A DNA stretch of 64,000 nucleotides from a bacterium (GCA_030427445.1 JAUIBQ010000003.1:1931-65930), one strand, 5' to 3'. Positions 7,502 to 57,600 are shown, counted from the first letter of the stretch. Notes: generated by a model not told the origin, from the sequence alone. Numbers and translations: made by a program.

Positions 7502-8044
7502 ATGCTTAGTAGAATGTCAAGATTCCTACAGTTTCAAGGATTTAGCCCTGCTAAGATATATGCAATGAATAAAAATCCGAATTTCTTAGCTGGCCGAGCA
7601 GTTGCATCTGTTGTTATACGGCGCTACGCTGGAAGTTTTACAATTCTTTTCGTCTCAATTAGTTTTGTAGGACTTGTAGTCACACTACTACTAGCCACAA
7701 TCTTCTCAGAGTGGTGGGCATTACTGATGGTGCTGTTTGTCCCACTACTAAGTATAAGTGGGCTACTTTACGTGGTCGTACGATTCATCTCATCGCGCAC
7801 AGCACCAAGAACACTAAGCAAGTCCGAACGAAAACAAACGCAAGAGTTTGTGAATGATGTACAGTACACCTACATTACTGCAAGAGCTATCAAAAGTTCG
7901 CCCACTGGAATTGGGCTTGCAGCTGCACTTGCGTATCTCACTGGTGGGAGGAATAAAGCTGTCAGATCCGTGATGAGTCCGATTGAGAGTTCAAAAGGAT
8001 TGAAAGAGAAGTTTGCAGACTTAGTAGAGCTTTTCTCACAGTAG
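7502..8044 (+). CDS. Hypothetical membrane protein
   Basis: 180-aa ORF with two to three hydrophobic helices. The real start is more likely the MNKNPNF methionine at 7565. Confidence 0.55.
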   Translation: MLSRMSRFLQFQGFSPAKIYAMNKNPNFLAGRAVASVVIRRYAGSFTILFVSISFVGLVVTLLLATIFSEWWALLMVLFVPLLSISGLLYVVVRFISSRTAPRTLSKSERKQTQEFVNDVQYTYITARAIKSSPTGIGLAAALAYLTGGRNKAVRSVMSPIESSKGLKEKFADLVELFSQ

Positions 8045-8593
8045 GGGCAGAACTGAAGGTGGGACCAGCTCAGCGACAGAAAGTCCCTGCTCATGTCGAG
8101 TCCTCACTTCAGTAGAGCTAGTAGTGAGCTGATCCACCTCTAGTATCTGAATATTATTGCCGTGGTCTTGTAGCTCATATCCAGGACGTTCAACAACCAA
8201 TAATGGCAAGTTTTCACGCAACCAATCCCCTCGCTCCCACTCGTGCATCGTATTTACACTGTCGCTACCGAATATCCATGTAAATGTAGCCTGAGGATTG
8301 TCTTCAGCCAGTCTTTCATAAGTAAGAAAGGTCTGTGACATCTCAGTATTTTTTAGTTCGACGTCGCATACCTGAGTTGTCGCCGTTGTGCTGAGACTAG
8401 CCAGCAATGCATGTGCGTAAGAGAGACGTTTTTCTACAGAAACTCCTATCTTTTTATCGTACCGTTCTCCACTTGGAAGTAACCAGAGCTCCATATCTCG
8501 CTCTACTGCATAGTCTGCGGCTGCTTGAGCAATTGCTTGATGAGCTACAGTAGGTGGATTAAATGCACCACCGTACACGATAACTTCTTTCAT
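8036..8593 (-). CDS. nadD: Nicotinate-nucleotide adenylyltransferase
   Basis: 185-aa ORF with N-terminal GGAFNPPTVAH (the GxFxPxHxxH nucleotidyltransferase motif) and NadD-like length. Adjacent NAD genes support the call. Confidence 0.85.
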   Translation of the reverse strand: MKEVIVYGGAFNPPTVAHQAIAQAAADYAVERDMELWLLPSGERYDKKIGVSVEKRLSYAHALLASLSTTATTQVCDVELKNTEMSQTFLTYERLAEDNPQATFTWIFGSDSVNTMHEWERGDWLRENLPLLVVERPGYELQDHGNNIQILEVDQLTTSSTEVRTRHEQGLSVAELVPPSVLPLL

Positions 8594-8612
8594 AGTGGTT
8601 GTCCTTTCTTAC

Positions 8613-8633
8613 TTAGTGTTCTATTGACACTAT
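8613..8633. promoter_or_regulatory. NrtR-type operator box 1 (TTAGTGT-N7-ACACTAt)
   Basis: The sequence is TTAGTGTTCTATTGACACTAT. It is part of a perfect 22-bp inverted repeat (8613-8634 versus 8647-8668) and contains a consensus TTGACA at 8624-8629. Confidence 0.65.
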
Positions 8634-8647
8634 ATATAATGTTTAGT

Positions 8648-8668
8648 ATAGTGTCAATAGAACACTAA
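8648..8668. promoter_or_regulatory. NrtR-type operator box 2 (exact inverted copy of box 1)
   Basis: ATAGTGTCAATAGAACACTAA is the reverse complement of box 1. It carries TATAGT (8647-8652), 17 nt from the plus-strand TTGACA, and the minus-strand TTGACA (8657-8652). Confidence 0.65.
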
Positions 8669-8681
8669 CTAGGAGAAAGCC

Positions 8682-10598
8682 ATGAATAAAAATTACGCTC
8701 CACAACAAGACCACATACGGGTTGCTGCCGCGACACCAGAAGTCAACATAAGTGATGTTGAAACAAACGTCAGTAGAATTAAACAGCTATACGAGCAAGC
8801 TGTAGAACAACATGTTACTCTTACTACCTTCCCCGAGATGTCTATCACCGGATATACGATTGGTGATCTAGTAATGCAAACCCAGCTTCTCGAAGATGCG
8901 CGCGAAGGTCTCGTTGAGCTCGCTGACCACACGAAAGATAAAAACGGTGCGATGATTGTAGGTCTGCCATTGCAGGTAAGAAATGGGCTGTACAACACCG
9001 CTGCCTTGCTTGCCGATGGAGAAGTAAAAGGAATCGTGCCAAAACTACATCTACCTACGTATCGTGAGTTTTATGAGAAACGCTGGTTTAGCGAAGGACC
9101 AGAAGAGCTTGAAGAAATTGAGGTTGGCGGTCAAACCACGACATTCGGTGCAAACCAGCTTTTTGAAGTAGCAGGTGCAGTTGTGGGTATAGAGATATGT
9201 GAAGATTTGTGGGTAGCGGACCAGAGAAACATACCACTCGTAACAAATGGAGCTGACATCATCGCCAACCCTTCTGCTTCTCCAGAAATCGCGACAAAAG
9301 GTGCATACCGTCGTGATCTCGTATCATTAACTGCCGGTAGAATCGCCGCTGGATATATCTACTCTGGAGCTGATCCAAGTGAATCAACAAGTGATATCGT
9401 CATGAGTGGTCACGCGCTTGTAAACGAGTTAGGTCGTCCGCTTGCAGAGCGCAAACCGTTCGATTTTAAAGCAGATCGGCTGACCATTGCTGACATTGAC
9501 CTCGGACATATTCGCTACCAACGAAGATTAGACAGCAACTTCCCTCAAGAAAGAAATTTTGCCACGCAAACGACTGAAGTCACCCGCACACAAGACACAC
9601 TGCAAAAAACAATTGACCCAGATGTGTTCATCCCGAAAGGCACGAGTGAAGAAGTCGCTGAGCGGCTTGAGGAAATCTTAACTATCCAAGCAGCTGGACT
9701 TAAAAAGCGCCTAGAGCACATCGGAGCTGAGCGAGTTATACTAGGCCTCTCAGGCGGGCTTGACTCTACACTTGCCCTACTGGTTGCTCTCAAGACAGCT
9801 CAGCTTATGGACAAACAGCCTGGCGACATCATAAAAACGCTTACCATGCCTGGTATGGCCAGTAGCGATCGCACTCAGAGCAACGCAACACGACTTGCCA
9901 ATAGTCTAGGCATCCCAAACGAAGAAATCCCTATCAGCTTCCTCGCGCAACATCAGCTTGAAGCCATCGGCCACGACACGCAAACACAAGATGTAACGTA
10001 CGAAAACACGCAAGCGCGACTTCGCACCAGCTTGCTGTTCAACAAGGGAAACAAAGAAAAAGGTATCGTGCTAGGCACGGGTGACTTGAGCGAAATCGCA
10101 ATCGGCTGGAGCACATACAATGGTGACCATATGTCAGGATACAACGTAAATGGGTCTATACCTAAAACACTCGTGCGACATCTTGTGGCTCATGGTCGAG
10201 ACACACTCGTCGATAACCAAGTGGCATATGAAATCTTGAGCGACGTACTGGATACGCCTATTTCTCCTGAGCTCACCAATGAAGTTGATGGTAATATCTC
10301 TCAGCATACTGAAGATATCATCGGACCTTACGAGCTTCACGATTTCTTCCTCTATTACCAAAATAGATGGGGTGATGCGCCCGCAAAAATTGCTTATCTA
10401 GCAAAGGCTGCGTTTGGTGAAAAATACGAAGCTGAGGAAATCGAAAAGTGGCTAGGAGTATTCACGACTCGCTACTACGGTAACCAATGGAAGCGCAACG
10501 CAATGCCAGACGGACCAAAAGTCGACACAGTCTCAATGAGCCCAAGGGGCGATTTACGGATGCCGGCAGATGCAACTCTCCCACAAAGCATGCTATAG
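8682..10598 (+). CDS. nadE: Glutamine-dependent NAD+ synthetase (CN-hydrolase domain plus NAD synthetase domain)
   Basis: 638-aa ORF. The N-terminal nitrilase-like domain contains ICEDLW. The C-terminal PP-loop is GLSGGLDS. AGGAG lies 7 nt upstream of the ATG. Confidence 0.9.
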   Translation: MNKNYAPQQDHIRVAAATPEVNISDVETNVSRIKQLYEQAVEQHVTLTTFPEMSITGYTIGDLVMQTQLLEDAREGLVELADHTKDKNGAMIVGLPLQVRNGLYNTAALLADGEVKGIVPKLHLPTYREFYEKRWFSEGPEELEEIEVGGQTTTFGANQLFEVAGAVVGIEICEDLWVADQRNIPLVTNGADIIANPSASPEIATKGAYRRDLVSLTAGRIAAGYIYSGADPSESTSDIVMSGHALVNELGRPLAERKPFDFKADRLTIADIDLGHIRYQRRLDSNFPQERNFATQTTEVTRTQDTLQKTIDPDVFIPKGTSEEVAERLEEILTIQAAGLKKRLEHIGAERVILGLSGGLDSTLALLVALKTAQLMDKQPGDIIKTLTMPGMASSDRTQSNATRLANSLGIPNEEIPISFLAQHQLEAIGHDTQTQDVTYENTQARLRTSLLFNKGNKEKGIVLGTGDLSEIAIGWSTYNGDHMSGYNVNGSIPKTLVRHLVAHGRDTLVDNQVAYEILSDVLDTPISPELTNEVDGNISQHTEDIIGPYELHDFFLYYQNRWGDAPAKIAYLAKAAFGEKYEAEEIEKWLGVFTTRYYGNQWKRNAMPDGPKVDTVSMSPRGDLRMPADATLPQSML

Positions 10599-11280
10599 TG
10601 ACACTATGTACGAAACCGAGTATGTTCCACCTACAGTAACTGTCGACGGTGTGATATTTCAAATCATTGACGGCGTACTGTATGTCGCATTGATTAAGCG
10701 TAGCGCTGAACCGTTTAAGGATAGCTGGGCTCTACCTGGAGGCTACAACGCCGCAGGTGAGACGACGCTTGAAGCACTTGAGCGCATCGTGAAACGTAAA
10801 GCTGGTATATCTATCAAAAAACAGACAAAGTTTGCTGAACAGCTATTTACGTTTGACACCGTAGCACGAGATCCACGAGGCCATGCGGTATCAGTAACCT
10901 ATATGGCTTGCGGGCTCGATATTTCTCCGCAGAACTCGTCAGAGCAAACACAGTTTTTCCCTGTAGATAACTTGCCAAAACTTGCGTATGACCACAAAGA
11001 TATCATTACGTACGCTCATGAACGACTTATTTCAAAGCTAAGCTACACAAATGTAGTTTACTCATTGTTGCCAGAGAAGTTCACGATGACAGCACTGCAG
11101 ACAGCCTACGAAGCAGTGTTCCAGCGGGAGCTAGATAAGAGAAACTTCCGGAAGAAGTTTGCACAACTCGACTTAATTAAAGAAACAGACGAGATGTTTA
11201 AAGAAGGTGCACACCGCCCTGCTCGGCTTTACACGTTTAAACAAAATACGCTCCAAACGCTTGTCAGGAGCTTTGACTAG
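10570..11280 (+). CDS. nrtR: NrtR-family transcriptional regulator (N-terminal Nudix-like domain plus C-terminal winged HTH)
   Basis: Nudix-fold N-terminal half (VIFQIIDGVLYVALIKR...WALPGGY). The C-terminal half, LQTAYEAVFQRELDKRNFRKKF...RPARLYTF, is typical of NrtR wHTH domains. The probable true start is the ATG at 10606 (MYETEY), 7 nt after the nadE stop. Confidence 0.75.
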   Translation: MQLSHKACYSDTMYETEYVPPTVTVDGVIFQIIDGVLYVALIKRSAEPFKDSWALPGGYNAAGETTLEALERIVKRKAGISIKKQTKFAEQLFTFDTVARDPRGHAVSVTYMACGLDISPQNSSEQTQFFPVDNLPKLAYDHKDIITYAHERLISKLSYTNVVYSLLPEKFTMTALQTAYEAVFQRELDKRNFRKKFAQLDLIKETDEMFKEGAHRPARLYTFKQNTLQTLVRSFD

Positions 11281-12244
11281 CAATTAACTGAGCGAAGGCT
11301 TTTCCAGCTGTAACTAATCTTTCACTCTGCTGAAGCTGAGTGATGTCAACTCCAGGATCTTCATCAGGATGCTCACATACCCACATACCTGCGATTAATG
11401 CCGCTGTACTGTCAGTATCCCCGCCTTCAGCTATAACTGCATCGATAAGCTCGTTGAATGGCGCACCTCTATTTCTGTCATAAGTCGCATATGCTACTGC
11501 TTGCACACACCACGATGCGAAAGACTCTTCAATATCATCATAGACATCATTTCCTAAATCGTGAGAGCGAATAGCCCGTGCAATTTTGCTATGTAGTGTC
11601 GATACTTCGTCAAAACGTTTCGTATGAGCTTCAGAAGCATACCAAGCGATATTTGACAGTAGCCTGTCATCATCACCCTTTATCAGTGTACGTAATATAT
11701 CTGCATGTGTTCTCGCATGAGCCATGCTCTGAAAATTACAGTGTGTGAGAGTTGTTGAATCATACACTGCGTGTAATCCGATATCTCTAGCGTCTGTACT
11801 GTTCGGGTTATGCTCATTAAAAATAACTAGTGGAGTCAGCCTCATAAGCGGTCCACAACCCATGGATTCTTCTTCACCTAGCCTAGCAAGATCACGCTTT
11901 GACATCGTTTCATCTACTTTTTCAATTGCTCGTTTCGTCGCACCACCCCAACCAGCATCCGACGTATCCATTTCAGTTCGTAGCCTATGTGCAAGATTCA
12001 TTAAGTTGAAACTTCTCGCAGTTGCAAGACTCTCCATCATCGCAAGTGTGTGCTGGGTGTCATCACTCCACGTGCCGACAGGCATACCTTGAAAATCAGG
12101 GAAATCTGGAGAGTGTACATCTGGTGCAATAAGCTCTGAAACCACGCCACCCAATTCCTCTATTTGCTGCTTTGTCTTTGCCTCATACGGTAAACCCTTT
12201 GCGTCTGCATATGCAGTTGTTGTTGCCAGATGATCATACTTCAT
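11264..12244 (-). CDS. ADP-ribosylglycohydrolase family protein
   Basis: 326-aa ORF with WSDDTQHTLAM near the N-terminus and GGDTDSTAALIAG near the C-terminus. These are the two metal-binding signature regions of the ARH/DraG family. The start overlaps the upstream gene stop by 4 nt. Confidence 0.75.
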   Translation of the reverse strand: MKYDHLATTTAYADAKGLPYEAKTKQQIEELGGVVSELIAPDVHSPDFPDFQGMPVGTWSDDTQHTLAMMESLATARSFNLMNLAHRLRTEMDTSDAGWGGATKRAIEKVDETMSKRDLARLGEEESMGCGPLMRLTPLVIFNEHNPNSTDARDIGLHAVYDSTTLTHCNFQSMAHARTHADILRTLIKGDDDRLLSNIAWYASEAHTKRFDEVSTLHSKIARAIRSHDLGNDVYDDIEESFASWCVQAVAYATYDRNRGAPFNELIDAVIAEGGDTDSTAALIAGMWVCEHPDEDPGVDITQLQQSERLVTAGKAFAQLIASQSS

Positions 12245-13116
12245 GCTGCCGTCTCCTCTCGAGTTAATGGTGGGCTTAGTTTTAATCTTTCACTAATATC
12301 TATGACATTAAGCAGTCGCTTCTCGTTGATATTCGTCCATTGCCCACCATTTGGAGATTGTTCAAGCTTCGGTGCCGTAATCATTCTCTCTTGTTTAACT
12401 AAATCTATATCATAAGGGTACACCATCCTCATCCAAGATAAATACTCTCGTACATCATTTGGGTTTTCGGGGTTACGCCTTGTGTACTCGATAATTGAAC
12501 AGTTTTTCATGTCTTGTGACTTATCGTTATCAAGTGCTACCAACTCTTCAGGAAGCATTCGCTCGATTAAATAACGATTTACAGATATAAATTCACCATG
12601 AGCAACAACGAGTACGCTCCCATCAGATACATCTCGGTGATACGTACCAAACGTATCACGTGCTCGCATCTGTACATCCGACAAGCTCTCAGCCCCATTC
12701 AACCCAGCGTAGAATGGGTTATTTTCTTGTGCGGTTACTGCAAACGGGAATTTTATTTTCCGTTCATCATACGGCGTCGCACCATACTCACCCCAATCGC
12801 GCTCACGAAAGCGATCATCGATATACCAATCTATCTTCGCTAGTCCACAAATATGTAATGCTGTCTCAGAAGCGCGCTGAAATGTAGATGCGTACCTCCT
12901 ATCAAAATCTTCAATCGGCATGATATTTTCACGAATCCACCTCCCCGCCATCTTTGCTTGCACGATACCCATAACTGAAAGTCGTTGCTCCCAGTCTGGT
13001 CGTGCATAGACTTCGTCATGATTTGGATGAATCTCGCCTTCTCGTTCTGCTTTATGTACGAGGTTCGCTTCAGACTCACCATGTCTCACGAATACTAATC
13101 TCTCTGGCATACTCAT
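12241..13116 (-). CDS. Histidine phosphatase family protein (phosphoglycerate-mutase-like)
   Basis: 291-aa ORF with LVFVRHGESEAN (the RHG catalytic motif) and a later VVAHGEF. It has a ~90-aa C-terminal extension with no recognisable motif. Confidence 0.7.
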   Translation of the reverse strand: MSMPERLVFVRHGESEANLVHKAEREGEIHPNHDEVYARPDWEQRLSVMGIVQAKMAGRWIRENIMPIEDFDRRYASTFQRASETALHICGLAKIDWYIDDRFRERDWGEYGATPYDERKIKFPFAVTAQENNPFYAGLNGAESLSDVQMRARDTFGTYHRDVSDGSVLVVAHGEFISVNRYLIERMLPEELVALDNDKSQDMKNCSIIEYTRRNPENPNDVREYLSWMRMVYPYDIDLVKQERMITAPKLEQSPNGGQWTNINEKRLLNVIDISERLKLSPPLTREETAA

Positions 13117-13150
13117 GATTTTTACTCCTTACATCCAATAAAATTTATAA

Positions 13151-13171
13151 TTAGTGTTGACATTACACTAA
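13151..13171. promoter_or_regulatory. NrtR-type operator box 3
   Basis: TTAGTGTTGACATTACACTAA has perfect 7-bp palindromic arms around N7. It contains TTGACA (13157-13162), a candidate -35 for pncA. Confidence 0.65.
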
Positions 13172-13192
13172 GTAAGATATACCATATACTTG

Positions 13193-13213
13193 TTATTGTC
13201 AATATGACACTAA
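13193..13213. promoter_or_regulatory. NrtR-type operator box 4
   Basis: TTATTGTCAATATGACACTAA has one arm mismatch. Its reverse strand carries TTGACA, a candidate -35 for the divergent phosphatase operon. The box centre is 42 bp from the box 3 centre. Confidence 0.6.
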
Positions 13214-13231
13214 GTAATAAGGAGGTTTGTC

Positions 13232-13900
13232 ATGAACAATAGAAAAAACACAGCACTAGGAATCATCGATGCGCAGAGAGGGTTTATGCCTGCTGCTGAA
13301 GGTGAGCGACTCGGTTTAGATGGGTTTGGTGAGCTGCCCGTACCAGATGGAGATACCGTGGTCTCCGCCCTTCAACCACTTATTCGTACACTGATGTCTG
13401 ATGAAACAGCAGTCGTCTTCACCACTCAAGATTGGCACCCAAATGGTACAGCTCACTTCGACGAGCAACCAAACTTTAGAACTACGTGGCCAACTCACTG
13501 TGAGCAAGACACCGACGGTGCAAAACTTCATCCCCACCTTGAAGGCGTGACAGCAAATGCCTTTTATAAAGGTGATGAGGTGCTTGCTAGAGGAGAGGAT
13601 GACACAAGTTATAGCGGATTTAACGCTAGAAGTTTTGAGGACGACACTGCCCTTCCTGAATTCCTGGAGAATAAAGATGTCCGTACGTTAATAGTCGCGG
13701 GGCTAGCATTAGATTACTGCGCTAAAGCAACTGCAATCGATTTCAAAACGAAAACGAACATGGACGTCGTGGTACTGACAGATGCGACAAAACCCGTTGC
13801 AGAAGAAACTGGCAAACTCGCTGTTGCAGAAATGCTTGAGCTTGGCATCCGATTCATGACCGTCGAAGAAGTCATCCAAGAGCTAGAAATGGAGGGTTGA
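13232..13900 (+). CDS. pncA: Nicotinamidase (isochorismatase family)
   Basis: 222-aa ORF with GIIDAQRGF (catalytic Asp region), QDWHP (metal site) and LALDYCAKAT (catalytic Cys). GGAGG lies 7 nt upstream of the start. Confidence 0.85.
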   Translation: MNNRKNTALGIIDAQRGFMPAAEGERLGLDGFGELPVPDGDTVVSALQPLIRTLMSDETAVVFTTQDWHPNGTAHFDEQPNFRTTWPTHCEQDTDGAKLHPHLEGVTANAFYKGDEVLARGEDDTSYSGFNARSFEDDTALPEFLENKDVRTLIVAGLALDYCAKATAIDFKTKTNMDVVVLTDATKPVAEETGKLAVAEMLELGIRFMTVEEVIQELEMEG

Positions 13901-13901
13901 G

Positions 13902-15164
13902 ATGGAAACGCTAGCTCAACAAAACGAACAAACACCTACGATTAGTACAGGGCTCGACTACTACAAGCCAACAATGAGTCAGGTTCAGTTTCTTAAACAC
14001 CCAAACGCCGATGTCTCTTTCACCTTAAAAAACAGGGGTAAAAACCGTCTTGCAGATCATGTTGATGTAGATGAGCTGACTACGAGGCTCGGTGAATTTG
14101 CACTTGGATGGCAAGATGTCGAAGTTGAATACCTTGCAACTCATGAACGACGGGACGGACAGCCTTTATTTGATGCCTGCTTCCTTGACTACTTGCGAGA
14201 AAATCAGCTTCCGCCAGTTGATGTACGCGTCGACGATGAGACGGATGACATCTCAGTAGAAACAACCGGCAAATGGCCACTTGTCACATTTTGGGAAACT
14301 GTCGTTATGAGCGAAATTAATGAACTATACTTTGAAGACTACATTGCGAGGAACGGCATAGACAAAGAAGAGCTGTTTGTTGAAGGCAATCGTCGACTAA
14401 CTGAGAAAATTGAACTTCTAAAATCACGCCCTGATATAAAATTTGCTGAGTTTGGTACACGACGGCGATTTAGCAGAGAGTGGCAGCGACACGTAGTTGA
14501 GCGGCTAAAGAACGAGTGTCCAGACAATCTTATCGGTACATCAAATGTAGCATTAGCCCAAGAGTTTGATCTCATGCCTATCGGAACTTACGCTCATGAG
14601 ATGCCAATGGTCTACGGAGCACTTGCTCAAAATGAAGACTACAGCCCGTTAGCCGGGCATGCATGGATGATGCGCGACTGGGAAGAAGTCTATGGAGACA
14701 ACCTATCAACTGCACTAACCGATACATACACTGATAACTTTTTCTTCGCTGAATTCACAGAAGAACAAGCAAAGCACTGGGCCGGCCTTCGACATGATTC
14801 TGGAGATCCTATCGCATTCGGTGAGAGAGTTATCGACTTTTACCACAGTCAGGGCATTGATCCAACAGAAAAGACAATCGTTTTCAGCGATGGACTTGAT
14901 ATGGAGACAATCCTCGAGATTGCTGATCATTTCAAAGACCAAGTGAACATCATATTCGGCTGGGGCACCACACTGACAAATGATTTAGGCTTAAAACCAA
15001 ACAACATCGTCATGAAAGCCACAGAAGCTGACGGCACTGGGACGGTGAAACTAAGCAACGAACCCGGTAAACACACTGGGGCCCCTGAAAATGTAGCAAG
15101 ATATCAGTTAGACGTCGAATATCGTAAACAAGCTCCAAAAAAGAAAGAACGGGTCGCAGTATGA
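13902..15164 (+). CDS. pncB: Nicotinate phosphoribosyltransferase
   Basis: 420-aa ORF with FGTRRRFS and HSGDP-type motifs. It starts 2 nt after the pncA stop. Confidence 0.85.
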   Translation: METLAQQNEQTPTISTGLDYYKPTMSQVQFLKHPNADVSFTLKNRGKNRLADHVDVDELTTRLGEFALGWQDVEVEYLATHERRDGQPLFDACFLDYLRENQLPPVDVRVDDETDDISVETTGKWPLVTFWETVVMSEINELYFEDYIARNGIDKEELFVEGNRRLTEKIELLKSRPDIKFAEFGTRRRFSREWQRHVVERLKNECPDNLIGTSNVALAQEFDLMPIGTYAHEMPMVYGALAQNEDYSPLAGHAWMMRDWEEVYGDNLSTALTDTYTDNFFFAEFTEEQAKHWAGLRHDSGDPIAFGERVIDFYHSQGIDPTEKTIVFSDGLDMETILEIADHFKDQVNIIFGWGTTLTNDLGLKPNNIVMKATEADGTGTVKLSNEPGKHTGAPENVARYQLDVEYRKQAPKKKERVAV

Positions 15165-15871
15165 AAGAGAAACTAACTGAGCGACGTGAAGCAATGAGAG
15201 AACATTGCCTCGAGATAATCGAACAGTCGTTAGCTGATTTCGACCCGTACGAAACAGAGCGATACAGTGGAGATGCGTCTACTGTTCCTGACGGGCCTTG
15301 GAACGTAGGGTCAAAGGAACCAATCTCGCCAAAAATAAAAGACAACTTAAGTGACTATGGGTGCCATTTTGATGATGAGTGTAAGCCAATTCACCCGTGG
15401 ATAGATGGTCTTTTAAAAACTACTGGAGTGGCTACAGGGACCGGACAATACTGGAACTGGGGGCCAAACTACACAGCTGACCCTATCGTCATCGCTAACT
15501 TAGATGATCCGCAGCTATTGCTAATAAAAAGAAGGAATAATCTCAAATGGGCTTTGCCGGGTGGATTTCTCGAACATGGTGATGATGCCGAAATGACAGC
15601 TCGAAAGGAAGCAAAACAAGAAAGCGACCTAACTCTTCCAGTGTACGAAGGGCTGGTTGTTTACGATGGGATAGTTGCTGATGAGCGAACAACTGCTCAT
15701 GCGTGGGCTCACACAACTGCCCTGCTCTGGATATTGGATGAAACTGTTGACGTAGTAGGGGGTGATGATGCTCTCGATGCTCAATGGTTCGATGTCAAGG
15801 AGCTCCCTAAACCACTCCATGGCTCTCACCAAAAACTAATTGAATTTGCGCTGCAGGATATAGGACTATGA
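15161..15871 (+). CDS. Nudix hydrolase, NUDT9-like ADP-ribose pyrophosphatase
   Basis: 236-aa ORF. YWNWGPNYTADPIVI resembles the WGPNxxADP signature of NUDT9-type ADPRases. The Nudix box is GGFLEHGDDAEMTARKEAKQES. There is a 4-nt overlap with pncB. Confidence 0.7.
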   Translation: MKEKLTERREAMREHCLEIIEQSLADFDPYETERYSGDASTVPDGPWNVGSKEPISPKIKDNLSDYGCHFDDECKPIHPWIDGLLKTTGVATGTGQYWNWGPNYTADPIVIANLDDPQLLLIKRRNNLKWALPGGFLEHGDDAEMTARKEAKQESDLTLPVYEGLVVYDGIVADERTTAHAWAHTTALLWILDETVDVVGGDDALDAQWFDVKELPKPLHGSHQKLIEFALQDIGL

Positions 15872-16809
15872 TCGAGCGACTGCCTAATCACCAACAAGCG
15901 TTCCTGGCCAATCGCTATCCAGAATTATCTGAACACCCTGATGACTCTGGTGGGCATATGGCCTACCATCGTTTGCTCTTGGCTCATCCTGAGTCTGATG
16001 AATCAGTATTCATCAAAGCTCACGACCCATCACTTCTTAGAGAAAAGTGGAGACAAGCGGAGATGTTGGCTTTCCTAGAAAAAGAAGCAAGAGTGTATGA
16101 ACATCTGAGGGGTCACCAGTTTTCTCGTATTCCTGAGTATATTGAATTTGATGAAAACATACTCGCATTGAGCGGGATGAGTGTCTCAAATGGCTGGTAT
16201 TGGCGAGCTCCGGCTGATGAACTGATGCAAGCCCACTACGTCCAAGATGTACTTACAGCTCTAGATGAACTCGAGCCACTTACGCCTCATACGCCTGAAG
16301 CAGGAGACGAAATCTCCATCGATATTTTCTATAATAACGGATGGGATATCCTCCGCAACACAGACGCAGACGAACTCGTTGAAACAAATATTGCACGCTG
16401 GGGCAAGGATCTACACCCAGAGACGGCACCACTGGCTCGGAGTCTCGTTGCGAACATTTCAGACTTCTCATTAAAACGAGCTGGAGTCATACCTACTGCA
16501 TTCAATCATCATGATGCGCGTCAAGCAAATATCGCTTGGCATCCCGAACACGGAGCTAAAATCGTCGATTGGTCATGGGCAGATGCTGGACTAAGTGGTG
16601 GCGACAAAACAATGTTCCTACTCGATCTTCATAAGTCAGATATAGATGTAACACCCTACATTGGTTACATAAATATTGACTATGCGAAGCTGGTGTTAGG
16701 CTATTGGCTCGCCCGTAGCAACACCCAGCACATGGAAGGTAACCATCAAGTCCGTATGCAACAATTTATCAGTGCAGTAAAAGCAAGTGAGTTGCTAGCT
16801 CAGTTTTAA
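15868..16809 (+). CDS. Phosphotransferase (APH/choline-kinase fold), substrate unknown
   Basis: 313-aa ORF with the catalytic-loop-like HHDARQANIAW and the metal-binding IVDWSWAD. There is a 4-nt overlap with the Nudix gene. Confidence 0.6.
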   Translation: MIERLPNHQQAFLANRYPELSEHPDDSGGHMAYHRLLLAHPESDESVFIKAHDPSLLREKWRQAEMLAFLEKEARVYEHLRGHQFSRIPEYIEFDENILALSGMSVSNGWYWRAPADELMQAHYVQDVLTALDELEPLTPHTPEAGDEISIDIFYNNGWDILRNTDADELVETNIARWGKDLHPETAPLARSLVANISDFSLKRAGVIPTAFNHHDARQANIAWHPEHGAKIVDWSWADAGLSGGDKTMFLLDLHKSDIDVTPYIGYINIDYAKLVLGYWLARSNTQHMEGNHQVRMQQFISAVKASELLAQF

Positions 16810-17346
16810 ACTTTTCAAAAATTTAGCAATTTGGTCAAACGGCTTCACTTTTTTATAGTAGACTTCAAATTCTTCTTCTGTCATTTCAGCCATAGTTTTT
16901 TCTGAACCATTTGGTTGAAACACCGAGTTCCACCCAAAGTCGCTCTCCCCTCGTGGTGATTCCACTATCACGCCCTTGAGAGATGACTCAAAAACCTTCA
17001 ATGTTTTTCCGTCATAGTATGCAATAGCTGCTCCAGCAGTCGCGGATTTATCTTCATAATTCTTTACCAAATTACACAATCCTGACGGGCCTAATTCTTC
17101 CAAAAAGAATTTTATGAATGGCCCTGGTAATTTACCGAGTGCATGAAAAGTCAGTCTCGTATCCTCAACAATCACAGGAACTTTCAAGTTTCTATATGCT
17201 GCCCTGACCTTATGCTCAACGATTTCAGTGAGATCCAAGCTTTGTATCTCATCCACATCAGCTTTCTTGTGTGGGATGTCTATCCCCACCATTTTCGAAA
17301 AGTATTTTGCTTTATTAGCATTTCCTGTGACGTAAACTACATTCAT
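16795..17346 (-). CDS. rdgB: Non-canonical purine NTP pyrophosphatase (RdgB/HAM1/ITPase family)
   Basis: 183-aa ORF with VTGNANKAKYF at the N-terminus, then EDTRL...LPGPFIKFF. This is ITPase-like. Confidence 0.7.
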   Translation of the reverse strand: MNVVYVTGNANKAKYFSKMVGIDIPHKKADVDEIQSLDLTEIVEHKVRAAYRNLKVPVIVEDTRLTFHALGKLPGPFIKFFLEELGPSGLCNLVKNYEDKSATAGAAIAYYDGKTLKVFESSLKGVIVESPRGESDFGWNSVFQPNGSEKTMAEMTEEEFEVYYKKVKPFDQIAKFLKSLKLS

Positions 17347-17351
17347 ACTAT

Positions 17352-20899
<3,548 letters not shown>

Positions 20900-53468: not shown

Positions 53469-53912
53469 TTATTTTATTTTGTGTTGGACTACGTCTTTTA
53501 AGGTTATAAAATCTTCTGCAATGATTCCTGCAGCAACCGAGTCAATCCCAGCGGATATCTCGCCGGCTCGTTCTTTTGCTGCTTCAGTAGTACCGGCCTC
53601 ATCAATTGCATACACTTCAAAAGCGTCACCAGACTGCTCACACAGTGTGTCAATGAATGCACGCGTTATCCTCGTCTGTTCACTGTCTTGCCCGTCTAAC
53701 CCTCTAGGCACACCGATGACGATACCATGTGATGATAAACTTCTAGCGATTTCTAGTAGCTCGCCAATAACCTGGTCGTCGTTAGTTCTTTCTATCACTG
53801 GTAAATACTCTGCAATTTGAGCGTGGGAGTTGATGCGCGCAACGCCAACTCTCTTAAGTCCGTAATCAACAGCGAGAAACTCGCCTTCTGCTTGTGAACT
53901 ATGCTGGCTCAC
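53469..53912 (-). CDS. ruvX: Putative pre-16S rRNA nuclease / Holliday junction resolvase-like YqgF
   Basis: 147-aa ORF with the LAVDYGLKRVGVA N-terminal motif and an RNase-H-like fold pattern. Confidence 0.8.
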   Translation of the reverse strand: MSQHSSQAEGEFLAVDYGLKRVGVARINSHAQIAEYLPVIERTNDDQVIGELLEIARSLSSHGIVIGVPRGLDGQDSEQTRITRAFIDTLCEQSGDAFEVYAIDEAGTTEAAKERAGEISAGIDSVAAGIIAEDFITLKDVVQHKIK

Positions 53913-55594
53913 TGTGACTGCACTTCAATCGTTATTTTTTCTGCGCTCTTAGGAGTTGTGGTAATCCACATCGGACTATAGTTCACTTCAGCGGACACAA
54001 CCCCATCAATTGACTCTAACCTGTCGATTATCTCACCTCGTTTTTTGCCTGCAAACTCTTCTGCGAGAGCATCGACATCAAGAGATGGACCTATTACAGC
54101 TACAGTTGAGAATGAGTAATCGTTTTCTCCAGTTGATTCAAATGTAATTCCACTGAGACCATTGTCGCTAACATTTTTTGTTTCATTTTCTTCAGATAGT
54201 GTTTCGGCTAAAACAGCATCTAAAATTACGCTCATATCACTATCTTTGTATCCAGTGAGCTCATACTCTACAGTTTGCTTAACGGTCACTGATTCTCCTT
54301 CTTCTCCAGCAATTGGGGAGATAGCGTATTTTGGCTCTTTTATGTCTAGTGTTACGTCCATCGCGGTGTAGCCAGCTTCTGTTAACTTCTGACGCAACTC
54401 TTGTAGTGCTTCTCCTCGAGCTGCTTCACCCAAAGAAGCTTTAGCTACAGCCACATCTTCATCACTTACTACTGTGATGATTTCAGTTGTACCGCCCGAT
54501 GCATCACCAACTGCATCTACGTCCGAACGACCGGATACTGTAAAGCTCGTATTCTTAGCAGTATCGTATTCTTCGCCAGATTCTTGAGCGATTATGGCGA
54601 CTGTATCACCGTTGAAATTGAGGCACGAACCATCAAAAGAGTCAAAGCTAAAACTTGCATCTTCTTGTGTGATATACGTTTTTCCGTCTGCACTTACACC
54701 TGTCCCTTTCGGAACATTTGAAGGAGAAGATATCGCACCGCATACTTGAGCACTCATTGTCACCTTTCCTTCTGCTTTTTCACCAATATTCTTTTCACCC
54801 GTCGCTTCTTCAGTAGCTTCATTTGTTTTTTCTGTTGTCACTCGTAAAGCTGGCAAAACTCGCTCATCAACATTAACTGTTGCATCTTCACTATAATCAA
54901 GTGTAATAGAATCACTAACGGGTATGCTCTGAGTGTTGGTCTGAACCGAGATCGTAGCTTTAGGCATCACAACAAAGCCAATGTACCAAAGAATAACTAG
55001 TGTGATAAATCCAACTACTCCAAGGATAAGTTTAGTCTGAAACGAGCCAAAATCAGGGACTTTAAACTTCTTGTTTTTTGCTTTCACCGCAGCTACTGTC
55101 GCTGCGGAAGTGGCTTCTTTATCCTCAGACACTTCTTTTGCCGTGTCCTCAGACACACCATCATCAGACAAAGAAGAATCTGTCGTTTTAGTAGCAGCTG
55201 CCATCCCAGCCCCCATAGCAACCACGGCATCAGGAGCATCGTCACCATCAACATCTTCGATGTTTACAGTTGGTATAAACGGTTTAGAATTGGCAGTTTC
55301 TGCCACATGCACGCCCGCTACGCCCGCAAGTGTATGAATAGACTTATCGGCAGTGACTAAAGCAATGTTTTTCTTTTGCTTAGTAGCTGCGCGTTTTAGT
55401 AGTTTCATATTTACTATGCTTTGAAGCACTTGTGCATTTTTTGGTAACACGATAGCTACGATACTGCTTGATGACTTCTTAACACTGTTTATTAATGCTG
55501 TGATGTCATCTTCATTATCAACATAGATTGTGTCTTTTTGCACTTTCTTAAGTGGCGTTTTTAACTTCGGTGTCGGTTTGCTTTTTGCGGTCAT
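53909..55594 (-). CDS. Hypothetical large membrane-anchored extracytoplasmic protein
   Basis: 561-aa ORF. A cytoplasmic N-domain, an acidic/Ala-rich linker and one TM helix (LILGVVGFITLVILWYIGFVV) precede a beta-rich ectodomain. It is coupled to the ftsA-like gene by a 4-nt overlap. Confidence 0.6.
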   Translation of the reverse strand: MTAKSKPTPKLKTPLKKVQKDTIYVDNEDDITALINSVKKSSSSIVAIVLPKNAQVLQSIVNMKLLKRAATKQKKNIALVTADKSIHTLAGVAGVHVAETANSKPFIPTVNIEDVDGDDAPDAVVAMGAGMAAATKTTDSSLSDDGVSEDTAKEVSEDKEATSAATVAAVKAKNKKFKVPDFGSFQTKLILGVVGFITLVILWYIGFVVMPKATISVQTNTQSIPVSDSITLDYSEDATVNVDERVLPALRVTTEKTNEATEEATGEKNIGEKAEGKVTMSAQVCGAISSPSNVPKGTGVSADGKTYITQEDASFSFDSFDGSCLNFNGDTVAIIAQESGEEYDTAKNTSFTVSGRSDVDAVGDASGGTTEIITVVSDEDVAVAKASLGEAARGEALQELRQKLTEAGYTAMDVTLDIKEPKYAISPIAGEEGESVTVKQTVEYELTGYKDSDMSVILDAVLAETLSEENETKNVSDNGLSGITFESTGENDYSFSTVAVIGPSLDVDALAEEFAGKKRGEIIDRLESIDGVVSAEVNYSPMWITTTPKSAEKITIEVQSQ

Positions 55595-56947: not shown

Positions 56948-57175
56948 TTAAAGTCCACCACCGCCAAAGACCCGTGGCTTATGCCAGCCTCCGAGACGAA
57001 GTCCTGAATCATTGCGTACTACTTGCAAAGTAGCGATACTTCCTGCATTGCCGGCGACTTCATCATCGGCACCAGAGTCGATATCCCCAAAACATACGTC
57101 AGTAGGCATCGGAACAATGTCAGTGGGCATCCAGAATTGTCCTATTGGAGGTAAAGTTTCACCAACTTCCGGCAT
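56948..57175 (-). CDS. Hypothetical small protein
   Basis: 75-aa ORF whose ATG overlaps the upstream stop (TAATG at 57177-57173), which suggests translational coupling. It ends in GGGGL. No motif. Confidence 0.4.
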   Translation of the reverse strand: MPEVGETLPPIGQFWMPTDIVPMPTDVCFGDIDSGADDEVAGNAGSIATLQVVRNDSGLRLGGWHKPRVFGGGGL

Positions 57176-57600
57176 TAACTGCGTATCCTTTTTGTAATAC
57201 GATCAAACCCTCTAGTTATTATCTGCGAGACACTCAGGTCTGTTGTTAAGCCAATACAGAATATTTCTGCAAAAGTAAAATCTTTAGGCAAATAAAATTC
57301 TACAGGTAGTTCTCTGGAGTACACATCTTGTTTTCCATCGTCGTTGAAACATCCTTCTTGAAAAGCAACACTGGCATCCCGACCATCATTTGTCATAGCA
57401 AATGAAATAACAACATTAGGCATATCACCCACAATTCGATAATCTACATCATACCCGAGAGGCTTTTCATCGTCATAAAATTCTTCAAGTGAAGAACCAA
57501 ACAGTATAGACCTTGCATCAGCTTCACGTTTAGACACAAATATACCTCTTGCATCCGGTGCTGGACTAAGCTTTTGAACTGGTCTTTCAAGAAGTGACAT
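57175..57600 (-). CDS. Hypothetical protein
   Basis: 141-aa ORF with no motif. No SD is visible, and an AT-rich -10-like GATATA/TATAAA lies immediately upstream of the ATG. Confidence 0.5.
   Translation of the reverse strand: MSLLERPVQKLSPAPDARGIFVSKREADARSILFGSSLEEFYDDEKPLGYDVDYRIVGDMPNVVISFAMTNDGRDASVAFQEGCFNDDGKQDVYSRELPVEFYLPKDFTFAEIFCIGLTTDLSVSQIITRGFDRITKRIRS

Follow-up and report, generated by a model that had tools for sequence, protein, structure and literature searches.

NrtR repressors are described as binding 21-bp palindromes with a GT-N7-AC core, located either on top of promoter elements or in the stretch from the promoter to the start codon (Rodionov et al. 2008, PMC2330246). 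In vitro, ADP-ribose was the ligand that dissociated NrtR from DNA most effectively (PMC2330246). Published regulons include nrtR-nadD<#>pncA-pncB-nadE in Pseudomonas and nrtR1-draG-SCO1765 in Streptomyces (PMC2330246), and they provide a precedent for NrtR control of pncAB, nadD/nadE, and an ADP-ribosylglycohydrolase. The tandem prs-nadV sites of Shewanella each bind NrtR separately, yielding two shifted complexes in EMSA, with ADP-ribose acting as an anti-repressor (PMC2330246). Effectors differ within the family, from ADP-ribose to NAD for Corynebacterium glutamicum NdnR and arabinose for Bacteroides thetaiotaomicron AraR (BtAraR), whose tandem sites at Bacteroides araM are 3 bp or 42 nt apart (BtAraR paper).

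The arrangement reported here belongs to this ordinary, known class of system and is a standard NrtR regulon (PMC2330246). Within the window, i.e., the whole 64-kb stretch of DNA analyzed, two palindromic boxes occupy the 115-bp region 13117-13231, exactly the gap between the start of ORF 12241-13116 on the minus strand and that of ORF 13232-13900 on the plus strand (Table 1). A first-pass annotation of this DNA had noticed two 21-mers fitting TTAGTGT-N7-ACACTAA with centers 42 bp apart, and one TTGACA per box, one on each strand. The sequence check bears out both points, with centers at 13161 and 13203, TTGACA at 13157-13162 (+) in box 1, and TGTCAA at 13197-13202, hence TTGACA on the minus strand, in box 2. 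The gene identities given by that annotation (His_Phos_1, ADP_ribosyl_GH, isochorismatase/PncA, and NAPRTase/PncB) also hold in Pfam and NCBIfam searches. The boxes span 19 to 81 bp upstream of pncA and 35 to 97 bp upstream of the phosphatase gene; each is 21 bp long, with GT at positions 6-7 and AC at positions 15-16, which matches the NrtR GT-N7-AC signature. The locus thus combines the features by which NrtR operators are recognized: a 21-bp GT-N7-AC palindrome, an encoded NrtR, overlap with predicted promoters, and conservation in relatives. Judging from the sequence, the sites at 13151-13171 and 13193-13213 are almost certainly bound by the NrtR repressor. To the whole reading, in which the boxes would be NrtR operators that block both divergent promoters and are released by ADP-ribose, we assign a probability of about 0.88.

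Table 1. Predicted features of the window and genes linked to boxes in related loci (L numbers)
Feature	Position	Strand	Evidence or remark
nadD	8036-8593	-	Pfam/NCBIfam
Second box pair	8613-8633 and 8648-8668	.	between nadD and nadE
nadE, glutamine-dependent	8682-10598	+	Pfam/NCBIfam
nrtR, cognate regulator	10570-11280	+	Pfam NrtR_WHD PF21906 2.9e-25 and NUDIX PF00293 1.6e-10; last gene of the nadE operon
ARH/DraG-family ADP-ribosylglycohydrolase gene (ARH)	11264-12244	-	Pfam ADP_ribosyl_GH PF03747 5.7e-34
His-phosphatase-superfamily gene, 291 aa	12241-13116	-	Pfam His_Phos_1 PF00300 2.5e-25; first gene of the minus-strand operon
Weak box-like site, TTAGTTTTAATCTTTCACTAA	12276-12296	.	2 mismatches; in the phosphatase ORF at its 3' end; ARH starts 32 nt downstream
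Box 1, phosphatase-proximal, TTAGTGTTGACATTACACTAA	13151-13171	.	0 mismatches to TTAGTGT-N7-ACACTAA
Predicted sigma-70-type promoter, pncA-pncB-Nudix-kinase	13157-13185	+	TTGACA-17-TACCAT, 10/12 matches, promoter scan
Predicted sigma-70-type promoter, His-phosphatase/ARH operon	13174-13202	-	TTGACA-17-TATCTT, 10/12 matches, promoter scan
Box 2, pncA-proximal, TTATTGTCAATATGACACTAA	13193-13213	.	1 mismatch to TTAGTGT-N7-ACACTAA
pncA (nicotinamidase)	13232-13900	+	Pfam Isochorismatase 1.8e-18
pncB (nicotinate phosphoribosyltransferase, NAPRTase)	13902-15164	+	NF003704 386 bits (cutoff 379); TIGR01514 308 bits (cutoff 270)
NUDT9-like Nudix gene, putative ADP-ribose pyrophosphatase	15161-15871	+	top solved-structure match 1q33, 6e-12
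APH-fold kinase-like gene, 313 aa	15868-16809	+	weak Pfam APH 2.3e-4, below cutoff; last in the plus-strand operon
L001			box-linked: ARH, single box 24 nt upstream
L002			box-linked: nadD<>nadE-nrtR
L003			box-linked: nrtR
L005			box-linked: nrtR; NUDT9-like Nudix gene, box pair upstream
L019			box-linked: ARH, box in the phosphatase-ARH gap
L020			box-linked: pnuC-nadR-like operon
L021			box-linked: ARH, own box pair shared with the divergent pnuC-nadR-like operon

As in the NAD regulons of PMC2330246, 21-bp GT-N7-AC sites lie over the predicted promoters of pncA-pncB and nadD/nadE in divergent intergenic regions, and nrtR, with its degenerate Nudix signature, is located inside its own regulon. 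Unlike those regulons, the one in the window belongs to a Candidatus Saccharimonadia (Patescibacteria) lineage, has the group-specific consensus TTAGTGT-N7-ACACTAA, and adds a His-phosphatase, an ARH, a NUDT9-like Nudix protein, and an APH-like kinase. The two adjacent sites and the conserved ADP-ribose-contacting arginines are reminiscent of Shewanella oneidensis NrtR (3GZ5/3GZ6/3GZ8). However, the similarity to that protein is distant (E = 8e-27), and the Shewanella targets are the nadV/prs salvage genes with a single promoter, versus two overlapping divergent ones here. In Streptomyces nrtR1-draG-SCO1765, too, NrtR control is predicted for an ADP-ribosylglycohydrolase gene, linking the regulator to the release of protein-bound ADP-ribose; yet draG is cotranscribed there with nrtR, apart from the NAD synthesis genes, whereas here ARH follows the His-phosphatase gene and its operator region is shared with pncA-pncB. 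B. thetaiotaomicron AraR (5BS6, 5DD4), the nearest solved relative (2e-32), likewise has tandem 21-bp sites, but it senses l-arabinose and controls pentose genes.

In the 64-kb window, TTAGTGT-N7-ACACTAA finds 4 matches at up to one mismatch, versus 0.02 expected, and none of 100 shuffles reached 4; at up to two mismatches, there are 5 matches versus 0.36 expected. All four of the stricter matches fall within two NAD-gene intergenic regions, and the claim of the first-pass annotation that the boxes are of the same operator type as the nadD/nadE pair stands, since one consensus covers all four sites within one mismatch. The mismatch histogram is bimodal, with the intergenic boxes at 0, 1, 1, and 1, then one site at 2 and two at 3, and the background beginning at 4. 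A position-weight matrix built from 24 boxes of the window and its relatives gives the consensus T-T-A-G-T-G-T-N7-A-C-A-C-T-A-A, in which T5, G6, C16, and A17 are invariant. The weak site at the end of the phosphatase ORF deviates at G6 and at A15 (47/48), and its membership in the regulon is doubtful. We rejected the idea that this site is a relic of the phosphatase-ARH intergenic operator of L019, as alignment at the protein level places it in coding sequence, some 35 nt upstream of the corresponding position. Sites at 54874 and 54898 (within ORF 53909-55594) and at 57216 (within ORF 57175-57600) are off-consensus at conserved core positions and were dismissed as chance occurrences.

The regulator, left unnamed in the text of the first-pass annotation, is the NrtR encoded at 10570-11280, about 2 kb from the boxes at 13151-13213. 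With NCBIfam model NF050029, it scores 140.9 bits, under the equivalog cutoff of 400, and its product is therefore a member of the family and not an equivalog. Its matches among solved structures include BtAraR (2e-32) and Shewanella NrtR 3gz5 (8e-27). In its longest form, the nrtR ORF shares 29 nt with the end of nadE; the sequence and its alignment with relatives suggest that the true start is probably the ATG at 10606, 8 nt past the nadE stop. On translation, the Nudix signature is degenerate (GGYNAAGETTLEALERIVKRKAGI), with RIVKRK instead of REUxEE of the reference GX5EX7REUXEEXGU, a perturbation that is typical of the NrtR family though not obligatory, and the same degeneracy is present in relatives. 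The non-hydrolyzing NrtRs of Synechocystis and Shewanella also have degenerate Nudix signatures. The altered signature of the window NrtR is a sequence feature indicating a ligand-sensing rather than a catalytic Nudix domain.

In Shewanella NrtR, Arg41 contacts the phosphate of ADP-ribose, and Arg98 contacts ribose and phosphate oxygens, while BtAraR has Gly at the position of Arg98 (BtAraR paper). HMMER alignments put the arginine of LIKR-S in the window NrtR opposite Arg41 and that of RDP-R-GH opposite Arg98, a placement based on a +3 offset between the PDB-chain and the paper numbering, which was derived from three reference residues. Both equivalents are invariant among the eight aligned NrtRs. 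Their conservation makes a nucleotide sugar, for instance ADP-ribose, a more likely ligand than a simple sugar, and ADP-ribose is probably the effector. The same NrtR operators might instead answer to another ligand, such as NAD as a co-repressor (NdnR-like), 2'-phospho-ADP-ribose, or NaAD, given that effector specificity varies among members of the family and that the closest solved structure by sequence is the arabinose sensor BtAraR, not an ADP-ribose sensor. In addition, pADPR, NaAD, and NADP(H) also weakened the DNA binding of Shewanella NrtR in vitro (PMC2330246). Nevertheless, the window NrtR, encoded among NAD genes, retains both ADP-ribose-contacting arginine equivalents, unlike BtAraR, and a regulon rich in ADP-ribose-related genes (ARH, NUDT9-like Nudix) fits an ADP-ribose signal. 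We consequently consider a different ligand unlikely and retain ADP-ribose as the predicted effector.

The promoter scan also reports symmetric predicted promoters, TTGACA-17-TATAGT, one per strand, in the gap between nadD and nadE. Positions 8607-8674 form a large inverted repeat, with 28-nt arms that are 93% complementary and 12 nt apart. As this region is an inverted repeat with mirror-image promoters, its two boxes are reverse complements of one another, spacers included. The same layout of the box pair is found in the related locus L002.

In the 115-bp gap, the two predicted promoters are the top-scoring pair of the consensus scan. On the plus strand, TTGACA at 13157-13162 is followed after 17 nt by TACCAT at 13180-13185; on the minus strand, TTGACA at 13202-13197 is followed after 17 nt by TATCTT at 13179-13174. 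This agrees with the earlier proposal, in which the -35 element of each divergent promoter falls within one box and the second box lies at or beyond the transcription start. By this geometry, the pncA transcript would start at about 13192, on the border of box 2, which would then cover approximately +1 to +21, and the phosphatase transcript would start near 13167, inside box 1. Because the predicted core promoters interdigitate, each box holding the -35 element of one and the start region of the other, the occupancy of either box should hinder both. Promoter-like sites as such are not in excess (9 in the 5 kb scanned versus a shuffled expectation of 8.4). The pncA promoter with its -35 element inside the phosphatase-proximal box is retained in L019, L020, and L021, whereas conservation does not extend to the minus-strand -35 element inside box 2; in relatives, the phosphatase promoter appears as an extended -10-like element just downstream of the phosphatase-proximal box. 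TATAAA at 13144-13149 (-) resembles that element, but as an alternative phosphatase promoter it was rejected: its -35 matches only 2/6, and the scanner did not report it.

The -35-like hexamer embedded in each box raises the question of whether the palindromes are a symmetric bidirectional promoter architecture, or 5' UTR hairpins, rather than protein operators. Indeed, the pncA leader transcript would include box 2, which could fold into a 7-bp stem, and the nadD/nadE region is a single large inverted repeat with 28-nt arms. However, conservation falls on the outer half-sites TTAGTGT/ACACTAA and not on the -35 hexamer, and several boxes lack TTGAC altogether (e.g., L001 3989, L019 866, and L021 5906). 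Half-sites are, moreover, conserved on either side of the start sites, and they also precede unrelated genes. An Rfam scan of 8000-17500 matched no family and returned sub-threshold chance matches only, and a known riboswitch or leader RNA was rejected on this basis. An architecture of promoters or hairpins alone is thus extremely unlikely, and we favor NrtR operators.

Conservation in relatives was a check that the first-pass annotation had proposed. A scan of a genome collection with NrtR yielded 18 loci, the five closest of which are Candidatus Saccharimonadia/Saccharibacteria MAGs with 58 to 64% identity; the lineage of the window is therefore most likely Saccharimonadia. A metagenome scan with the phosphatase yielded four loci (L019 to L022, 39 to 53% identity). 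The box pair lies directly upstream of the phosphatase ortholog in all four and is shared with a divergent pncA(-pncB) in three. In the five-way alignment of these loci with the window, box 1 and its embedded TTGAC are invariant and the half-sites of box 2 are conserved, whereas the flanks are poorly conserved. The pncA-pncB-Nudix-kinase synteny is kept in L021. These data give strong comparative support to the earlier assertion that the minus-strand phosphatase/ARH operon is under the regulator of the salvage genes, further backed by the box or boxes that ARH carries of its own where it is a separate unit in relatives (Table 1).

Box pairs vary in spacing from 34 to 50 bp center to center, which led us to reject fixed helical phasing, does not support a fixed cooperative geometry, and argues for independent dimers over a fixed higher-order complex. 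Other box-linked genes in the relatives extend the picture. In L020 (3814-4546) and L021 (8439-10211), a box-preceded operon encodes pnuC (NMN_transporter) and a nadR-like protein (cytidylyltransferase plus AAA_28). In the same two loci (L020 1172-2779, L021 6828-8435), the phosphatase gene is followed by a codirectional gene for a 535-aa protein with weak methyltransferase-domain matches, which takes the place of ARH, so the operon partner of the phosphatase is variable. Homologs of pnuC, nadR, and this methyltransferase-like gene, all of them linked to boxes in L020 and L021, were not found in the 64-kb window.

Could the boxes serve another NAD regulator encoded outside the window, such as NiaR, NadR-HTH, NadQ, or an unknown factor, with nrtR nearby only incidentally? 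Our scan covers 64 kb of the genome, and since many genomes group their NAD genes with nrtR, colocalization alone is weak evidence. The motif geometry, however, is that of the NrtR family (21 bp, GT-N7-AC), in contrast to the NadR operator TGTTTA-N6-TAAACA. Box-like sites also flank nrtR itself in 11 of the 18 loci, across Saccharimonadia, Sungbacteria, Gammaproteobacteria, and Bacteroidota, often where no neighboring NAD gene was found. Across the 18 loci, which include Sungbacteria, Gammaproteobacteria, and Bacteroidota, the density of sites with up to three mismatches within 150 bp of nrtR is 50 times that elsewhere (16/30 matches, in a zone making up 2.2% of the sequence; binomial p = 4e-19), a figure somewhat inflated by AT-rich intergenic composition. 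Finally, the wHTH segment of NrtR (FDKRNFRK, RPA-LY-F) is conserved across nrtR loci together with the motif. Another regulator is therefore highly unlikely, and the encoded NrtR is the candidate that we retain.

We propose that one NrtR dimer would occupy each box, probably as a repressor rather than an activator. In the NrtR family, repression is deduced from sites that overlap the promoter or lie in the interval from there to the start codon, and the boxes here fall in the same class of positions. At low ADP-ribose, the four boxes would be occupied and four transcription units shut; the two dimers in the divergent gap would cover the -35 element of each promoter and the start region of the other, so that RNA polymerase would be excluded from both operons. 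Upon non-redox consumption of NAD, free ADP-ribose would accumulate and bind to the catalytically dead Nudix domain of NrtR, which would then dissociate from DNA, and the salvage, final-step, and ADP-ribose-handling genes would be derepressed together. PncA, PncB, NadD, and NadE would rebuild NAD from nicotinamide, while ARH could free further ADP-ribose from modified substrates, and the NUDT9-like Nudix enzyme could clear ADP-ribose and reset the switch. Since nrtR is within the nadE operon and would be derepressed with nadE, the circuit would be autoregulated.

The four plus-strand genes abut or overlap, as do the two minus-strand genes, and each set is thus most simply a single operon. PncA matches the NCBIfam nicotinamidase/pyrazinamidase model (3.2e-26, under the curated cutoff). 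The phosphatase carries the N-terminal RHG catalytic motif (FVRHGESE, residues 8-15) of branch 1, and its scores against the NCBIfam CobC, PspA, and dPGM equivalog models are all far below cutoff. The ARH start overlaps the phosphatase stop codon (ATGA); its match is full length, spanning 7-275 of the 287 PF03747 profile positions, and it scores far below the NCBIfam equivalog cutoffs for DraG or Tri1. The structure matched best by the Nudix protein, 1q33, is an ADP-ribose pyrophosphatase that we take to be human NUDT9. Its Nudix box is altered (ARKEAKQES), whereas the homologs in L021 (ARRELIEET) and L005 (LREVHEETG) retain REUxEE; judging from this alteration, the protein of this organism may have lost some or all of its ADP-ribose pyrophosphatase activity. 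No solved-structure relative of the product of 15868-16809, an uncharacterized kinase-like protein of the NAD regulon, was found by sequence; in L021 (38% identity), the gene likewise follows pncA-pncB-Nudix. The roles of the phosphatase, ARH, Nudix, and kinase proteins in ADP-ribose handling are presumed from membership in their families.

What is new here is modest: the lineage, the group-specific consensus, and the phosphatase and ARH as conserved members of the Saccharimonadia regulon. Our literature search returned no paper mentioning NrtR together with Saccharibacteria; combining NrtR with "ADP-ribosylglycohydrolase" returned only a virus survey, and the spelling used in the founding paper, "ADP-ribosyl-glycohydrolase," escapes that search. 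The understanding of NrtR-type regulation is unchanged by these results. They assign a regulator, the operator consensus TTAGTGT-N7-ACACTAA, and a coherent regulon in a lineage of the Candidate Phyla Radiation for which, to our knowledge, very few pairs of transcription factor and operator are known. They also give a guilt-by-association hint toward NAD/ADP-ribose metabolism for three genes with poor annotation, those of the 291-aa His-phosphatase, the ARH homolog, and the APH-like kinase. As a tentative and rather doubtful extension, the Saccharimonadia NrtR could also control a conserved ADP-ribose-processing module, comprising the CobC-like His-phosphatase, the ARH hydrolase, the NUDT9-like Nudix protein, and the APH-fold kinase, that would recycle ADP-ribose/phospho-ADP-ribose or nicotinamide/nicotinate ribotides by an undescribed route. 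If so, the enzymes that make and destroy the ligand of the repressor would sit within its regulon, and the module would represent a lineage-specific cofactor-economy pathway for genome-reduced epibionts unable to make NAD de novo.

Two further observations concern these genes in relatives. In L019 (1821-2786), the ARH homolog is divided between two ORFs (1821-2444 and 2451-2786) and is either a frameshifted pseudogene or the product of an assembly error. In L001 (664-1976; Saccharimonadia MAG HM.17), a 208-aa His_Phos_1 gene, whose product resembles the window phosphatase only remotely (27% identity), lies between nadE and nrtR in an apparent single operon; this nadE-phosphatase-nrtR arrangement is an independent link between the His_Phos_1 family and NrtR.
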